DNA from: a virus
Taxonomy: Duplodnaviria > Heunggongvirae > Uroviricota > Caudoviricetes
Strand: one strand, 5' to 3'
Virus record (IMG/VR): IMGVR_UViG_2740892282_000009
DNA length: 22,170 bases
In this document: one piece after another, positions 13,700-22,170 of the stretch
Numbering within the stretch: position 1 is the stretch's first letter
How the letters are laid out: each line of letters opens with the position of its first letter
The notes under the pieces: model-generated
What the model was told of the DNA's origin: nothing
Seen by the model: the letters and a program-made list of their open reading frames with translations, nothing else
Databases searched by the model: none
Made by a program: the position numbers and the translations under genes

Positions 13700-14854
13700 A
13701 TGCACATTGTAGCTCATAAAGGAATGACCAAATTGGTAAAGAATGTATATTTCGATGAATCAGGATTCACTGGTAATAACTTACTTTCAAAAGATCAGCC
13801 TTTTTTTAGTTACGCAGCAGTCGTGACTGATGATGAGGAAAGTAAACAGTTTGTTGATTATATAATAAACAAGTACTCGATCGCAGCCGAAGAGCTAAAA
13901 GGTAGCACTCTCGTAAATAGCAAGAGATTTCAACCAGCCGTAGATGAAATACTTAATCATTTCCGTGGTCGTATGCGTGTGGTTGTAAACGAAAAAAAAT
14001 ATGCCCTCTCAGGAAAATTCTTCGAATATATTTTTGAGCCAGTATTAGCAGCTAAAAGCTCAATTTTTTACAACCTTAAATTTCACCTATTCATCTCAAA
14101 TATAATGTATTTTTCTTTAATAGCTAAGGATGAATATTCAGAACTATTACATTCGCGATTTGAAGATTTTTCACGAGGTAAAATATTGGTTAATAGTTTT
14201 ATCGAACCAGTTGTTGGTTCTAAAAATTCTGAAATTATGATGGACATTCATGATTTCGCCAAGAATAACATCTCTATAATTGAAGAAGAATATGAAGGCC
14301 TTGAGGGTACTGGGATTGATAAGTGGTTATTAGATTTGACAACGACTTCTCTTTATAATCTCCTGTGCGATATGAGTAGTAAGTTTGGTACATTGAGAGC
14401 TATATGCGACAGCTCAAAACCATTAATTACTCATCAGGACTCATTCAATGAGATGATAGGCAATGATGAGATTGTGTTCGAGACTTTTCATGATAAAAAA
14501 ATCCCGATCACATTTAAGCTATCTGAGCCAATGATTCTTTCTGATTCTAAAGTCACGCATGGTATACAAATTGCGGATGTGGTAGCTGCGGCTAGCATTT
14601 ATGTCCTTAACAAGAAAAAATCGAAAGAAAAATATCATTCTAAATGGCTAAATCATTTTGAAGATGAGATTTTTTATTGGCAGTGCTGTGTTGTTCCCAC
14701 ACCAGAAAACCTTGACCCTAAAAATGTTAACAACCATTTAAATAGATATATTTTGCAAGAAATTGCAGAGCGAAGCAGAAACTCAACTCCTGTTTTAGAT
14801 GATATTGAGAAGGATATAATAAGAATTTCCAGAACATTAGCCATGCTACGTTGA
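13700..14854 (+). CDS. DUF3800-like protein (384-aa ORF; probable start at ATG 13724, 376 aa)
   Basis: N-terminal VYFDESGFTG matches the DESG-type signature I associate with DUF3800 (function unknown). AAAGGA immediately precedes ATG 13724. Followed by a strong hairpin terminator. Confidence 0.5.
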   Translation: MHIVAHKGMTKLVKNVYFDESGFTGNNLLSKDQPFFSYAAVVTDDEESKQFVDYIINKYSIAAEELKGSTLVNSKRFQPAVDEILNHFRGRMRVVVNEKKYALSGKFFEYIFEPVLAAKSSIFYNLKFHLFISNIMYFSLIAKDEYSELLHSRFEDFSRGKILVNSFIEPVVGSKNSEIMMDIHDFAKNNISIIEEEYEGLEGTGIDKWLLDLTTTSLYNLLCDMSSKFGTLRAICDSSKPLITHQDSFNEMIGNDEIVFETFHDKKIPITFKLSEPMILSDSKVTHGIQIADVVAAASIYVLNKKKSKEKYHSKWLNHFEDEIFYWQCCVVPTPENLDPKNVNNHLNRYILQEIAERSRNSTPVLDDIEKDIIRISRTLAMLR

Positions 14855-16432: not shown

Positions 16433-17224
16433 TCATTTATCCCAAAGCGTCATAAGTTTACTCTTAATCTCATCCGTTATTGCTGAGTGATTCGACTTAT
16501 AGATGATTTTTAGTGCTTCAACGTTGTCGCCATTCTTGAATACTCTTCGCATTGAAGATGCCTTTGTTCTTGCAGTACTTTCCTTCCATTCTGGATGGTC
16601 AGTTACCATCTTTTCAACAAGATCAGTTGTGTTCATACCACTTTCAACATACTGATAGTACTCAATAAATGTCTGCATTCCTATTGTCTGTAGATCCCGG
16701 ATAGTGTTTGAATCTGGCTTCACCGTGATCTCTTCCTTTGAACGTTCAGTGTCTGGATCAATAAATTCAATGATGTCTGTTACACGTGGATCGTTAAGTA
16801 ATAAATTGCTGATTCTTAAAGTGTAACCATTCTGGTGCTCATTATAAAAACCATATTCCTTCACTAATTCATGTGGTATGGATACAGCATAACGAATTGA
16901 GAAATCATGGTTATATATTACGGCAATGAGCTCATCGAATTGGTTCAGATCATAATTTCTGATAATCCCAAGAATTAATGATTTGTTTTTTAAATTATTC
17001 TTACGAGACTTAATCTGAATTTTTCGATCATCAATCGTTGTAGCGTCATACCCTTTAGTACTAGGTGCAGCCAGTACCATTTGCATCTTATCCGCAACCA
17101 GCCATTCAGTGTACTCACTGATAGGATTGTTTCTGGTTCTGATAACCTCTCGTCGTTCTAACTCATCAAGCGTCAACTGATTCAGTTGCATCAATTCGAC
17201 GTTACTCAATTGTGATAAATCCAT
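16433..17224 (-). CDS. Hypothetical protein (263 aa), translationally coupled partner of the HNH nuclease
   Basis: Its ATG (17224-17222) abuts the stop of the upstream gene (TAA 17227-17225). Possible degenerate nuclease-like segment (GYDATTIDDRKIQIKSRK); otherwise unrecognised. Confidence 0.4.
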   Translation of the reverse strand: MDLSQLSNVELMQLNQLTLDELERREVIRTRNNPISEYTEWLVADKMQMVLAAPSTKGYDATTIDDRKIQIKSRKNNLKNKSLILGIIRNYDLNQFDELIAVIYNHDFSIRYAVSIPHELVKEYGFYNEHQNGYTLRISNLLLNDPRVTDIIEFIDPDTERSKEEITVKPDSNTIRDLQTIGMQTFIEYYQYVESGMNTTDLVEKMVTDHPEWKESTARTKASSMRRVFKNGDNVEALKIIYKSNHSAITDEIKSKLMTLWDK

Positions 17225-17953
17225 TTACTCGCTCCAAAAGGTCATTTTCTCTTTCAAGTCTGCAATTGAAAGTACTTTGCTCCCACGATGTACCATTGCA
17301 TGGCAATTTGGACATAATGGGACCATATCTGTTACGGGGTTGACCACATAGTTTTCCCCAATCGTATGAAGCGGCTTGATGTGATGTACATGAATGAATC
17401 CACGGCCATGTGTACCATAGACCTTCTCAAAATCGAAACCACAGCATTTACAGGTAGTACCGTGATGTTGGATGCAGGCTTGTCTGGCCTTTGGATCGCG
17501 TTCGTAGTAGTTCACTGTTACTTGAGTCTTTGCACCTTCAACAAAACTCTCTCCTGAAGGAATTTCATCAGGGAATGGATTAGGTAAGAAGTCTGCATAC
17601 CAAACAACGCCTTCTTTACGCAGATATCGCTTGTTTAATTTACGCTCAAAATCCTTGATAACTGCAATTTCAGGGTTATCCGGGTGTTCTGCGAAAACCA
17701 TATTGAAGGTGTAAAGTTCGTAGCCTTCATGGACTAACCTGACGTGTTCCAGTGCCTGGGTGTATCCCAGTTGTTTTTTGTTGTTTGAGTTGTACTCCCA
17801 ACGCTCTCGAAGAATGACTGACCGCTCTTGTTCACTCTCAACATCCCATGACCCAAAGATGACCATCTTCTTTTCATGGTTAACAAATGACCAACTCCAC
17901 GTCCAGTTACTGCAAGTAGCTCCGTGCGACTGGATGAATTGCTTCCGGTTCAT
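17225..17953 (-). CDS. McrA-like HNH nuclease with an unassigned N-terminal domain (242 aa)
   Basis: C-terminal HNH signature YERDPKARQACIQHHGTTCKCCGFDF...GFIHVHHIKPL...MVPLCPNCHAMVH, compared with E. coli McrA from memory. The Trp-rich N-terminal 150 aa (SNWTWSWSFVNHEKKMVIFGSWD...) may be a modified-base reader (EVE/SRA-like); this is a guess. Confidence 0.65.
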   Translation of the reverse strand: MNRKQFIQSHGATCSNWTWSWSFVNHEKKMVIFGSWDVESEQERSVILRERWEYNSNNKKQLGYTQALEHVRLVHEGYELYTFNMVFAEHPDNPEIAVIKDFERKLNKRYLRKEGVVWYADFLPNPFPDEIPSGESFVEGAKTQVTVNYYERDPKARQACIQHHGTTCKCCGFDFEKVYGTHGRGFIHVHHIKPLHTIGENYVVNPVTDMVPLCPNCHAMVHRGSKVLSIADLKEKMTFWSE

Positions 17954-18156
17954 TTCTAATCCTTTGTTGTATGATGCTGATATGTAATGTCTTATGTTAT
18001 CGGGATCTCAGGAGAGAGAGCAATTTTTTCATATAATTTGTGATCATTATCAACACCATAATTATAACTAACCTTAAGTTAAATTTAAGTAGCACTGATG
18101 GGTACAGAAAATTAATATTTACGATTCACTTTCCCAAATGTTAACATCCATCATTA
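17954..18156. promoter_or_regulatory. AT-rich divergent intergenic region (likely promoters for the HNH operon and the membrane-protein gene)
   Basis: 203-bp AT-rich spacer between divergently oriented genes; no -10/-35 pair confidently assigned. Confidence 0.3.
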
Positions 18157-18849
18157 TTGGTTGAGTTTCGAGTACTTCATGTGAATATTAAAATAACAAA
18201 TAGAATACTTGCATCCACAGTTATCGTACTTCTATGGGTAGCAATATTGGTGTTGGTTAAAGTACTTTTTCATGGAGGTAGCCAATTGGAATGGGGATCT
18301 ATTAGTGATTGGGTTAGTTCTATCGCCAATCTAATTATGGCAGGGGCAGCCCTATATGCAGCATGGAACGCTAAAAATTGGTTTCAAACTAAAATAAAGG
18401 AAAATGCATTAAATCAAGTTACTAAGTTCTGGACTAATTGCGATCTTTTTTCGTTAGAAATGTTAAAAACATATGAAAATGTACGCAGTCTCAACAATAC
18501 AGATCCTGATTTTGAGCCAAAAGACTTCGCTTACTTAGTGAGGACAGAAAAAGAAGTTATCGATCAACTACAAATAAAGCTAACTTCATTAAAAAATGAG
18601 TTGCAATCGCTTACTTTTTGGAAGGTATCACCAAAGGATGCAACCATTTTTAAAAATTATTTTTTCAGCAATCAAATGGCTCTGAGCACTTTAAAGGAAG
18701 CAATAAATTTTGATATAAATGATATATCTGAGCGATATCATTACAACATGAACTATGGAAAAGTATTAGTTGACACTTTTAAAGGTTTAATTAACACGCA
18801 TGAAACACTTAAAAAGGACATGAATAATCTTTTCCATTTCTCTAATTAG
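18157..18849 (+). CDS. Membrane protein with hydrophobic N-terminal segments and a soluble, coiled-coil-like C-terminal domain
   Basis: The ORF begins with TTG at 18157 and has no ATG before the second hydrophobic segment, so the start is uncertain (GTG 18178 possible). Hydrophobic segments ILASTVIVLLWVAILVLVKVLF and VSSIANLIMAGAALYAAW. AT-rich. Confidence 0.4.
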   Translation: MVEFRVLHVNIKITNRILASTVIVLLWVAILVLVKVLFHGGSQLEWGSISDWVSSIANLIMAGAALYAAWNAKNWFQTKIKENALNQVTKFWTNCDLFSLEMLKTYENVRSLNNTDPDFEPKDFAYLVRTEKEVIDQLQIKLTSLKNELQSLTFWKVSPKDATIFKNYFFSNQMALSTLKEAINFDINDISERYHYNMNYGKVLVDTFKGLINTHETLKKDMNNLFHFSN

Positions 18850-18867
18850 AGTTCACATCGTTCAACA

Positions 18868-18890
18868 AGCGGTGGACAATCTTCACCGCT
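18868..18890. terminator. Hairpin downstream of the membrane-protein gene (terminator candidate)
   Basis: AGCGGTG-gacaatctt-CACCGCT: 7-bp stem with 9-nt loop, followed by an A/T-rich tract. Confidence 0.4.
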
Positions 18891-18989
18891 ATAATTAATA
18901 CTTCAATATACGTATTTACAATGGCTTCATTAAAGTACTCATCTTTTGGTTCTCTTATGGTTATGTATTAAAAGTATCTTATCCCATCA

Positions 18990-19869
18990 CTATTTAACAC
19001 TACCATCATTCATAACCCATTTTTTCTTGCCCGACTGAAAATCCTCGACTATAGCTTTAATTTGTTCTGAAAAATCTATAATGGATGTACTAGCTATAGG
19101 TTCTCGATAAACGTAATCACAATGGTATTCTGTAATTTTAAATCGCACCTTACTATCTAAACCCTCGAGCCAACCATCATTGAATTTTTCAAAATATTCA
19201 CCAGGGCCATATTTCAGTTCTTTACTCAAACTGAAAATCCTGTTTGGTATATCATGTATAGTATATTTCACATTGTTTTGAACATCATTGATGAAGACCT
19301 CATTGTTCATCTTTCCTTTAAATATATTTTGGAAATCATCTTCTTTATAGTCGCTCTGAGAGTTAAACCATGCACCATCAACACGCACATTAAAATTTTT
19401 AATTTCTGGTAATGTCCGTGCAATTATATTCATATGAATTGTTTTTAACAATGGCTCACCATCTTCAGTAATCCAATCGGACTCTTGCTGACCACGTATA
19501 ACAAGCAACTGTATATTGTGCTGTTCAGCTTTTATCTTTGCACCACTCTGATATCCTGTCCGTGTAGCATAAATTAGCTTAAGACCTGGGATGTCTGAAG
19601 TTTTACCAATATATGCATCAATTTTTTTCAATAGATACTGGTGTTGAATAATCTTTACACTCTATCACTGATCTATAGATATTACCCCCTAACTCAAATT
19701 CCCAATAGATATCAAATTCCCTTTCAATACCTGAACGATCTTTAATCTTTTTATTCTTCTCAATGTTAATATTATTGAGGCTTGGTATATTCTCAGCTGC
19801 AATAAGTGACCGCTGGATATCCCGTACTAGTTCTTCATATTCCTTGCCTGAATTGTACATATGAATCAA
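18990..19869 (-). pseudogene. Mrr-like (PD-(D/E)xK, restriction-endonuclease-type) nuclease gene split by a frameshift in a 7-nt homopolymer
   Basis: The upstream ORF (19618-19869) carries EFDIYWEF...VIECKDY; the downstream ORF (18990-19631) continues with KLIYATRTGYQSGA, matching the Mrr catalytic-domain pattern as I recall it. The two frames overlap in the T7 run at 19622-19628 (A7 on the coding strand); the downstream frame has only a TTG start. Removing one nucleotide gives a continuous reading frame of about 295 aa. Confidence 0.55.
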
Positions 19870-20541
19870 TATCTCTAAACAGAATGTATTGCTAATAGTA
19901 CTCCAAATGCCTGTAATTGTTCAAGTATCAGATAAGCAACCTTACAGCTTAGATAGAAAGCTAAGACTGCTTCTGTTGTTCAAATTAATATATCTACTTG
20001 CAAGGAACGATTATGTAAATCGTATGCAACAATCTGGGTTCGGTCGATCCACGGTTCGCGGTTGGGACTGCGTGGGCAACTCACTAATAATTTGATCAAT
20101 TACTTTGCCAGTACTTAGAAAGTAATTATGTGAGGCTTTAACAGCCGAACGCCCCGACAAGGGAGTTTACGACCACGTAGTTACTCACGAATACTTACCA
20201 AATCACTTTGAGTTCTTCTTTTGTCAGTACTGTTACTTGTCTGAGCGAAAGCGAGTAAATCCCTTAGTTCTTTTCGAGTACTAGCGAGAAAAAACGCAAG
20301 GTTCGGTTTAATTTGTTTTTCAGTGACTATACGACCGCAGGGAGTGTAGGCACTCAAAGACCGATTTGGACGTAGTACAAGAGGTCTTAATAATTTCTAA
20401 TTATGGTGTCGAAATTCTGGGCAACCCATATACAGTGTGTTTTAACTCATATTGATACTATATCTAGTGCAAGCAACACTAATCAACCCCATAAAAACCA
20501 CATTTAACCTTAATTACGACATTTGAACCGTTATTAAAACA

Positions 20542-21066
20542 CTACTTAGAATGTCTTAATTCGGGATAAATTGTAGCTATAACCTTTAGTAGGTCTGCCT
20601 TAGTACAGCCACCATCTAAAGCCATACGTAGTTGATATGCTTCTTCACCAGTTAAGTACTGTGCTCCCTCTGGTGTATCACTTCTTACCGGCTTACCACT
20701 ACTTAGAATCGCATTCAGGCCTTCACATATAGCAATCGTGACCATCTTATAATCTCGTACTGAGGAATCGCCGTACTCATTGAGTGTAAAGGCATCAAAG
20801 TACTCGATATTGTTCTTTATCGCTTCATCTGTGATGTATCGAGTCGATGTAACCAGAAGTAGCATATTCTTGTTTGAGAAAGTCTTACGTTTCTTGTTCT
20901 TTTCAAAGTAACTTTTAACAGAGTTTGATATTACTCTACGTGCTTCATCTGTAAGTTGATTGAGATGGCGTACTCCCCTTAGATGATCTTGTAATTCTGC
21001 ATTATCGTGTTTTTTTGGTTTTCGTCCACGTTTCTTTATTTCATGCGGCTCTTTCTTTTTTGTCAT
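20542..21066 (-). CDS. Hypothetical protein with basic N-terminus (174 aa)
   Basis: Lys/Arg-rich N-terminus (MTKKKEPHEIKKRGRKPKK) suggests nucleic-acid binding. Directly downstream of the HNH homing-endonuclease-like gene; backbone composition (GTAC-rich). Confidence 0.4.
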   Translation of the reverse strand: MTKKKEPHEIKKRGRKPKKHDNAELQDHLRGVRHLNQLTDEARRVISNSVKSYFEKNKKRKTFSNKNMLLLVTSTRYITDEAIKNNIEYFDAFTLNEYGDSSVRDYKMVTIAICEGLNAILSSGKPVRSDTPEGAQYLTGEEAYQLRMALDGGCTKADLLKVIATIYPELRHSK

Positions 21067-21131
21067 AATAAATACCCCTATGATAGATGTTAATATTGGC
21101 CTGTAGTATTTCCAGTACTCAGGCCATTTCG

Positions 21132-21632
21132 TTATTTTGATTTTTGTAATAGTACCGCACTAAGTTTTGGAAATGCTTTATACTGCTGCGATATTTTATA
21201 GATATATGATTTACGCCCAACAACATAAGCAGCATGAGCTTCTTCTATCGTTGGGTATGTCCCAAACTTATGTACTTTCTTATCAAATGTTGCTTGTGCT
21301 TGATAGCCCTTATGATTAACGACAACACCGGTTGATAATGATGTTGGTACTTTACGGAACAATTGATTTACTTCTCTCGGTACAAAGATGCAGTTACTTG
21401 GGCTGTACTCATTACCTCCTAATATGTCTTTATCTAAATGCCAACCATCAACAACATTTTCAACATACCAATAATAAAAATCACTAAACCGATACCAGTC
21501 ATCGCAGATGGTAACAGTACTGTAATTGATGTTATTACGTACTCTTGAGTGAAAATTATTCCATACTCGTAGTGCTTGTTTTACATGTGGTAATTCCTGA
21601 CCCTTTAGGTCATTTCTTTTTTCCTTTTTCAT
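21132..21632 (-). CDS. HNH homing-endonuclease-like protein (HNH_3-type motif plus AP2-like DNA-binding region, 166 aa)
   Basis: WHLDKDILGGNEYSPSNCIFVPREVN fits the H-N-N pattern of phage HNH_3 endonucleases; the C-terminal GYQAQATFDKKVHKFGTYPTIEEAHAAY is AP2-like. ATG at 21632 with AAGGA 7 nt upstream. Confidence 0.6.
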   Translation of the reverse strand: MKKEKRNDLKGQELPHVKQALRVWNNFHSRVRNNINYSTVTICDDWYRFSDFYYWYVENVVDGWHLDKDILGGNEYSPSNCIFVPREVNQLFRKVPTSLSTGVVVNHKGYQAQATFDKKVHKFGTYPTIEEAHAAYVVGRKSYIYKISQQYKAFPKLSAVLLQKSK

Positions 21633-21650
21633 ATTTCATCCTTGAAACTA

Positions 21651-21671
21651 AGTACTTCATCCTGAAGTACT
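21651..21671. promoter_or_regulatory. Perfect inverted repeat AGTACTTCA-tcc-TGAAGTACT (operator or hairpin candidate)
   Basis: 9-bp arms with a 3-bp spacer, about 20 bp upstream of the HNH_3 start and 35 bp downstream of the small upstream ORF. The 3-nt loop is tight for an RNA hairpin, which favours a protein-binding site. Confidence 0.4.
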
Positions 21672-21705
21672 GTTAGTACCTTTCTAAAGTGAAAGTACCA
21701 AACCC

Positions 21706-21858
21706 TTACTTACTATCTAAAATCCCATATTGCTGTATCAGATACTGAATGGCTGAACTCATCGTTGTAGCCTTACCACACACTATAAGTGATTTTAGTA
21801 TTTCTTCTTGTGTAGGACTTAATCTCACCCCAACACTAATAGTTTTCTTTTCTTTCAT
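21706..21858 (-). CDS. Small ORF (50 aa), possible ribbon-helix-helix-type DNA-binding protein
   Basis: Not in the supplied ORF track (below its length cutoff). Hand translation: MKEKKTISVGVRLSPTQEEILKSLIVCGKATTMSSAIQYLIQQYGILDSK; AAGGA 6 nt upstream of the ATG. The pattern (basic N-terminus, VRLSPxxEExL..., ...SSAIQYL) resembles small RHH regulators or antitoxins. Confidence 0.35.
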   Translation of the reverse strand: MKEKKTISVGVRLSPTQEEILKSLIVCGKATTMSSAIQYLIQQYGILDSK

Positions 21859-22170
21859 AACATTCCTTTGTTTAACATTTTCCATTTTTTCTCAACGCAA
21901 AAAGATCCCCATGTTGGGGATTACTTTTTGATGTAGAATTATAATTATCACGTTGAGGTAGTGATCACCATAATATGGATTATACCATGTTATTTTTTAT
22001 CGTTCCAAAAACTTGATAACCATTTTATTTATGGTTGGAATTTTCAAAGGTAGTGCTAATACTGTTAGTAACATAAAAAAGATGCACAGTACTATCCAAC
22101 ATGGAAATAGTACGAACATATAGATTGCCGTAGCAATGATTTCAAAGATTATTTTGTATATCCAATTCAT

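Follow-up and report, generated by a model that had tools for sequence, protein, structure and literature searches.

The window analysed here (the whole 22,170-nt stretch of IMG/VR record IMGVR_UViG_2740892282_000009) comes from a siphovirus-type prophage of E. coli with genes for terminase, portal, head and tail J proteins. Within its accessory region, two overlapping open reading frames on the minus strand cover positions 18990-19860. The upstream frame is listed at 19618-19869 with 83 aa and is 80 aa long from the ATG at 19860 (19618-19860): it comprises residues 1-79 of a nuclease followed by one wrong residue (N) and a TGA stop codon at 19618-19620, and is identical to WP_249437065.1 (P0135). 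The downstream frame (18990-19631, 213 aa) carries the rest of the nuclease domain and the C-terminal domain, and is identical to WP_249437064.1 (P0121). The two frames overlap by 14 nt (19618-19631) at a run of seven A residues (A7; T7 on the plus strand) at 19622-19628, where the minus strand reads ...TCT ATT GAA AAA AAT TGA.... The initial annotation had described this run and overlap, and both the sequence and the list of reading frames bear it out; the motifs that it quoted are likewise present, DIYWEF and VIECKDY in the upstream frame and YATRTGYQSGA in the downstream frame. As it had also noted, the downstream frame has no ATG and starts with TTG. No AGGAG-like Shine-Dalgarno motif was identified upstream of this TTG in GTGTAAAGATTATTCAACACCAGTATCTA.

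Deletion of one A from the run joins the two frames, as had been proposed, although the resulting protein is 289 aa in length from the ATG at 19860 (or 292 aa from a TTG at 19869) rather than approximately 295 aa. The start of the orthologues aligns with the ATG. Past the A7 run, the +1 frame reads KKIDAYIGKTSD... and continues the protein, while the -1 frame reaches a stop after 16 codons. In the intact allele, the corresponding A6 run covers the codons GAA (E78) and AAA (K79) and extends one base into ATT (I80). As there are nine A or T runs of at least 7 nt in the 22-kb window, the A7 run by itself is unremarkable; it matters as the junction of two halves of one protein.

A search with the repaired protein identified more than 300 relatives. 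Nearly all of the 120 that were listed cover 97-100% of the query and are approximately 284-311 aa in length, and the only shorter homologues among the matches listed are a few records marked as partial by their sources, while two are extended by approximately 100 aa. One match (P0001) is near-identical, with a K93E change that results from a SNP at 19580, and the best match after it shows 79% identity (E-value: 9e-152). These homologues are named either "restriction endonuclease" or "hypothetical protein" by their sources. Because the repaired protein matches a single family over its full length, with this degree of identity and more than 300 matches, the junction is far beyond chance, and 18990-19860 is a single gene.

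The repaired protein is predicted to be a nuclease of the PD-(D/E)xK type. Pfam Mrr_cat (PF04471) aligns with residues 50-119 at 19.0 bits (E-value: 0.0016), which is below the cut-off of 21. All 41 aligned homologues match Mrr_cat at E ≤ 0.01 (best 1.2e-8), and many of the homologue matches carry a precomputed PF04471 annotation. The catalytic-motif residues D50, E67 and K69 (D50 ... E67-x-K69, codons at 19654-19713 on the minus strand as computed from the ATG at 19860) are invariant in the 41 sequences, in which identity falls as low as 40%. An AlphaFold2 model based on the 41-sequence alignment is confident (pLDDT 90.6). The nuclease domain occupies the N-terminus (residues 1 to approximately 124) and has the alpha-beta-beta-beta-alpha-beta core fold of PD-(D/E)xK nucleases; in the model, the 80-aa upstream fragment holds helix 5-22 and strands 34-69 of this core.

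The C-terminal domain (residues 125-289, 18993-19487, minus strand) is rich in beta strands. No structural relative of it was found, and a search of all PDB sequences with the family profile gave no meaningful match. When a profile of this domain was compared with 1.84 billion representative proteins, only 180 matches were obtained. The full-length matches are 265-313 aa in length with the domain in the same place, except for one 389-aa protein with extra C-terminal sequence. As the matches share both length and domain position, the domain is exclusive to this nuclease family. The only architectural variant seen among the homologues consists of three proteins of 389-390 aa (P0110, P0116 and P0146) that are approximately 100 residues longer. 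P0110 and P0116 have a precomputed match to PF04255 (DUF433), and in P0146 the C-terminal domain of the family lies at residues 127-283, so the extra residues of this protein follow that domain.

The initial annotation had called the gene "Mrr-like". This description is accurate for the catalytic domain but not for the rest of the protein, which lacks the N-terminal DNA-binding domain of Mrr and has a different C-terminal domain instead. The closest known proteins are the Mrr_cat (PF04471) PD-(D/E)xK nucleases, such as AF1548 (PDB 1y88) and the catalytic domains of MspJI, AspBHI and E. coli Mrr. Like the Mrr-type type IV restriction enzymes, the gene is solitary and has no cognate methyltransferase. 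In Mrr, however, a winged-helix Mrr_N domain precedes the nuclease, whereas in the family described here the nuclease is N-terminal and is followed by a domain unrelated to known folds; Mrr_N is absent and Mrr_cat is the only Pfam match. Comparison of the intact protein with PADLOC (PADLOC-DB v2.0.0), NCBIfam and PHROG gave no match at E ≤ 0.1, 0.1 and 0.01, respectively. Three features of the intact protein (its fold relatives, solitary state and prophage location) lead us to infer that it is probably a stand-alone defence-type DNA nuclease. By analogy, it may act like a type IV restriction or abortive-infection enzyme, with the C-terminal domain presumably recognizing the target or acting as a sensor.

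The neighbourhoods of 80 orthologous loci were searched for a partner gene that is conserved (for instance, a methyltransferase or one conferring immunity). None was found, as the commonest neighbour family occurs in at most five of these loci. Methyltransferases adjoin the gene in only four or five of these loci, where they belong to type III systems. The commonest neighbours overall are type III restriction-modification genes, NERD proteins, type I S subunits and integrases. In the window itself, two further restriction-type genes on the minus strand abut each other approximately 1 kb from the broken gene and form a small cluster with it. The gene at 16433-17224 matches the PADLOC model mREase_II, "type II methyl-directed restriction enzyme" (E-value: 1.3e-62), and has a precomputed Pfam DUF6998 match, while the gene at 17225-17953 encodes an HNH endonuclease resembling the mREase_IV models (E-value: 3.8e-8). 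Between the terminase module and this cluster, on the opposite strand, lies a 384-aa gene (13700-14854, plus strand) that is annotated as DUF3800 in E. coli AREA_C483 and matches phrog_12991 (E-value: 8.5e-119), a group of unknown function. The region surrounding it has the lowest G+C content of the window (approximately 0.31-0.35).

When the gene region and the whole window were compared by megablast with 50,697 phage records, the gene was unmatched and only bp 1-297 of the window gave a match. Over these bases, the window shares 99.6% identity with the end of Escherichia phage phi467 (LN997803.1) and 86% with Salmonella phage S.Kent 1-2-1.

An intact copy of the gene is found at the same prophage position in E. 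coli AREA_C483 (NZ_CP123310.1, locus L001 at 2136568-2178067), where the prophage region is located between mipA/yeaE and yeaG. The repaired protein is identical to the product of this 870-nt CDS (WP_109536599.1). It is also identical to P0140, which occurs on 549 contigs (most of them E. coli). The window and AREA_C483 differ over 5.7 kb by six substitutions and one indel, and within the gene the only difference is T7 in the window versus T6 in AREA_C483. The AREA_C483 prophage with the intact nuclease gene is badly decayed, with a terminase gene cut by IS3, IS5 and ISSen4 and a group II intron inside an IS3 remnant. In the window prophage, by contrast, the structural genes are contiguous and the nuclease gene is broken.

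The exact products of the A7 allele (WP_249437065.1 and WP_249437064.1) are present on at least 23 contigs. In the cluster tables, the 80-aa product is assigned to 21 contigs and the 213-aa product to 18, with 42 and 36 index blocks, respectively. The broken allele is therefore a minority (roughly 20-40 contigs versus 549 for the intact allele). Ten A7 loci were read, from nine samples and a tenth assembly. Besides the window, these were ENA assemblies ERZ28662430 and ERZ28661173, NCBI assembly GCA_028757225.1 and Logan contigs from ERR11569506, SRR35993764, SRR30830593, SRR27404202, SRR31800420 and SRR35008929. The seven A residues were counted in the DNA of loci L002-L009 and deduced from the encoded 80-aa product for L100. 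The A6 run was found at five loci (L001 and L010-L013), namely AREA_C483, two Logan contigs, one IMG/VR contig and one JGI contig. The window carries the A7 haplotype and has the six SNPs by which this differs from the A6 haplotype. L003, L004, L005, L007 and L009 are identical to the window at every shared base within 16440-22170 (up to approximately 5.7 kb), L008 is identical to it across the gene and L002 differs from it at one base.

Within the gene, the A7 alleles differ by a single change. On one Logan A7 contig, the new TGA stop codon is changed to TGG, adding five residues to the upstream fragment (P0139, 85 aa); either the broken allele acquired a second mutation or this 1-kb contig contains a read error. 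Because within-gene variation is limited to this one stop-codon change, the A7 event is too young for relaxed selection to be visible. The spacer upstream of the gene (19870-20541, approximately 670 nt) contains no open reading frame of 60 aa or more, and an Rfam scan of the window, this spacer included, identified no RNA family. L010 and L011, which have the A6 allele with K93E, lose their homology with the window at 20168, which places a recombination breakpoint in the spacer.

Other lesions are found in the same gene. In other E. coli assemblies, a second frameshift site lies in a run of five G residues at codons G58-G59 (19685-19689, minus strand), which is intact in the window: shortening of G5 to G4 on an A6 background gives exactly the pair P0138 (64 aa) and P0132 (225 aa, from a GTG). 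Another variant, P0134, is truncated after residue 200. Among the 80 orthologues, knock-outs were identified in seven, consisting of two frameshifts at this same Gly-Gly site (L031 of Enterobacter chuandaensis and L045 of Yersinia alsatica) and five internal stops (L029, L052, L060, L077 and L081). This pattern is one of repeated, unsystematic loss of function in which homopolymers are natural weak points, and not that of a designed switch. Repeated natural knock-out of the nuclease gene hints that its carriage has a cost.

Based on these results, the A7 run is a real and heritable +1A frameshift in an accessory nuclease gene of a prophage; it was probably produced by slipped-strand mispairing and has probably given rise to a minority loss-of-function pseudogene allele. 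Of the possibilities put forward in the initial annotation, an inactivated nuclease thus fits best: the A7 allele is heritable and in the minority, its stop lies inside the nuclease domain and the orthologues are intact at the site. The mutational mechanism is likely to be replication slippage, which would add one A to the A6 run in GAA-AAA-ATT (E78-K79-I80). Translation of the A7 allele ends after residue 79, inside the nuclease domain and at the start of helix 77-87, and the remaining 210 codons are left in the +1 frame behind a TTG without a ribosome-binding site. The remainder of the nuclease core and the entire C-terminal domain are lost. Six invariant residues (G85, K86, D89, Y103, Q104 and G106) lie beyond the break. 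Judged from its sequence, the A7 allele is most likely null and its split form non-functional, and this minority allele has spread together with its prophage.

Two explanations other than simple inactivation concern the run itself. The extra A might be a sequencing or assembly artefact of the window, the true gene being intact. Homopolymer-length errors are a typical artefact of some sequencing platforms, and the intact allele is the commoner one. However, A7 was recovered from three pipelines (ENA metagenome scaffolds, Logan assemblies of SRA runs and an NCBI assembly), and five of the ten A7 loci share the window haplotype at every common base. Because independent assemblies from nine samples, and a tenth assembly, gave the same A7 allele, the one-off sequencing error raised in the initial annotation is effectively excluded, and we consider an artefact very improbable. 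A switch is also improbable. In this scheme, also suggested in the initial annotation, the A6/A7 run would be a contingency tract in which replication slippage reversibly turns a costly or toxic prophage nuclease on and off. Both lengths do circulate in near-identical prophages, homopolymers are known indel hot spots and the G5 run of the same gene is also affected. Furthermore, one locus (L006, ENA ERZ28661173 scaffold_3975, equivalent to 17169-22170 of the window) has A7 on a mosaic haplotype, so that tract state is not fully congruent with the flanks: three of its SNPs (21629, 20453 and 18859) are those of the A6 haplotype seen in L001, L012 and L013, but the SNPs at 21217 and 18237 are not shared. 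The sequence of L006 could mean that the A7 indel arose or reverted more than once. This lone discordant locus is, however, a metagenome scaffold with a run of Ns (18557-18563), and it may either be chimeric, joining sequences of co-existing strains, or be truly recombinant. In the 15 loci over which single and repeated origins were compared (by pairwise BLAST differences), the identity of five of the ten A7 loci to the window fits a single origin spread by descent. The tract is also short, at six or seven bases, and has two lengths only, with intact copies outnumbering broken ones (approximately 549 versus 20-40 contigs). The exact products expected of A5, A8 and A9 are absent from a collection of 15 billion proteins, and DNA pattern scans of IMG/VR and JGI that permitted runs of 4 to 12 A residues found A6 alone. 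The other knock-outs are substitutions or truncations rather than changes of the tract. In 80 species-representative orthologous loci from many phyla, the A run at this site is 6 nt in 32, 4 nt in 32 and at most 3 nt in 16, and is never 7 nt or longer; 48 of the 80 interrupt it with synonymous or conservative codons (GAG, GAT or AAG). As no orthologue has a run longer than six and so many break it, the tract is not conserved as a device. K79, I80 and D81 are invariant in the 41 aligned homologues and residue 78 is E or D, which makes the A6 run a by-product of the GAA-AAA-AT codons. An on/off tract is therefore unsupported.

Two further explanations would leave the A7 allele with some activity. 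One is recoding, in which a +1 ribosomal slip (tRNA-Lys on A-AAA-AAA before UGA) or slippage of RNA polymerase yields some full-length nuclease, so that the gene is down-tuned rather than dead. The stop codon directly follows the A run, and after a +1 slip the next codons are I-D-A-Y, exactly as in the intact protein. A/T runs are known to cause transcript indels in E. coli (PMC5574713), and disrupted genes rescued by transcriptional slippage have been described (PMC1088944). On the other hand, efficient slippage, and selection against slippage, are seen at approximately 9 nt (PMC1088944). Rescue of A7 at the transcript level needs -1 or +2, while the errors found in runs of E. coli transcripts are insertions, which become more frequent as runs lengthen, and deletions rarely fall in runs (PMC5574713). 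Ribosomes that err on A-rich heptamers commonly shift by -1 (PMC10861913), and the -1 frame here is a dead end that stops after 16 codons; programmed -1 frameshifting on A-AAA-AAT was rejected for the same reason. Nor is the slippery two-ORF layout conserved: no homologue retains it, all 80 orthologues have a single ORF that is in frame at the site and so does the majority E. coli allele. Recoding is as unsupported as phase variation and we consider it quite improbable; any full-length product from A7 would be a low-level accident and not a programme. The other explanation is a working split enzyme, with the 213-aa part made by re-initiation at the overlapping TTG and the fragments re-assembling. 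Between them, the fragments contain all residues of the intact protein. The cut coincides with the beginning of a helix and lies outside any strand, and the TTG is 11 nt upstream of the stop; a start codon so placed near a stop can allow termination-reinitiation. This arrangement nevertheless seems extremely improbable, as none of the 80 orthologues examined is naturally split here, the cut divides the compact nuclease domain beside the invariant K79-I80-D81, the TTG is a weak start without a Shine-Dalgarno sequence and the A7 allele is a rare, recent derivative of the intact gene. We likewise regard as a long shot a combined scheme in which a low-frequency heritable A6/A7 (and perhaps G5) switch, or a trickle of full-length enzyme produced by +1 slippage, operates on an undescribed single-gene defence nuclease with a sensing C-terminal domain. 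If this were true, the A6/A7 switch would keep the costly nuclease mostly off but recoverable in a lysogen population, and the C-terminal domain, whose fold has no known relative, would sense phage DNA or a phage protein.

With inactivation as the preferred reading, the A7 allele resembles the ordinary pseudogenes that arise from single-base indels in short homopolymers. A 6-nt run gained one base, the resulting allele is much less common than the intact one, and there are independent disruptions in the same gene and in its orthologues. It differs from them in nothing essential; the A7 allele has spread to many samples with its prophage. Like phase-variable restriction-modification genes, it is a restriction-type gene whose frame is set by the length of a homopolymer. 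Such contingency loci occur in Haemophilus, Neisseria, Helicobacter and Campylobacter, and have longer tracts, many length variants and a tract that is conserved among strains. In the gene described here, in contrast, the run is six or seven bases, there are two states only and the orthologues drop the run. Genes that use transcriptional slippage at 9A/9T runs, such as those of IS elements and mapW (Baranov et al. 2005, PMC1088944), similarly have two overlapping ORFs joined at an A run. Their runs are approximately 9 nt and their two-ORF layout is conserved, whereas here the run is 7 nt and the layout is unique to one allele.

For annotation, these results mean that 18990-19860 should be treated as one frameshifted pseudogene and not as two hypothetical proteins; at present, RefSeq carries the fragments as separate proteins (WP_249437064.1 and WP_249437065.1). 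The frameshift itself is routine gene decay, and the modest value of the locus lies in the nuclease family. This family is a widespread and unstudied group of solitary nucleases without a model in PADLOC, and its intact allele is a reasonable candidate for a test of defence or toxicity.
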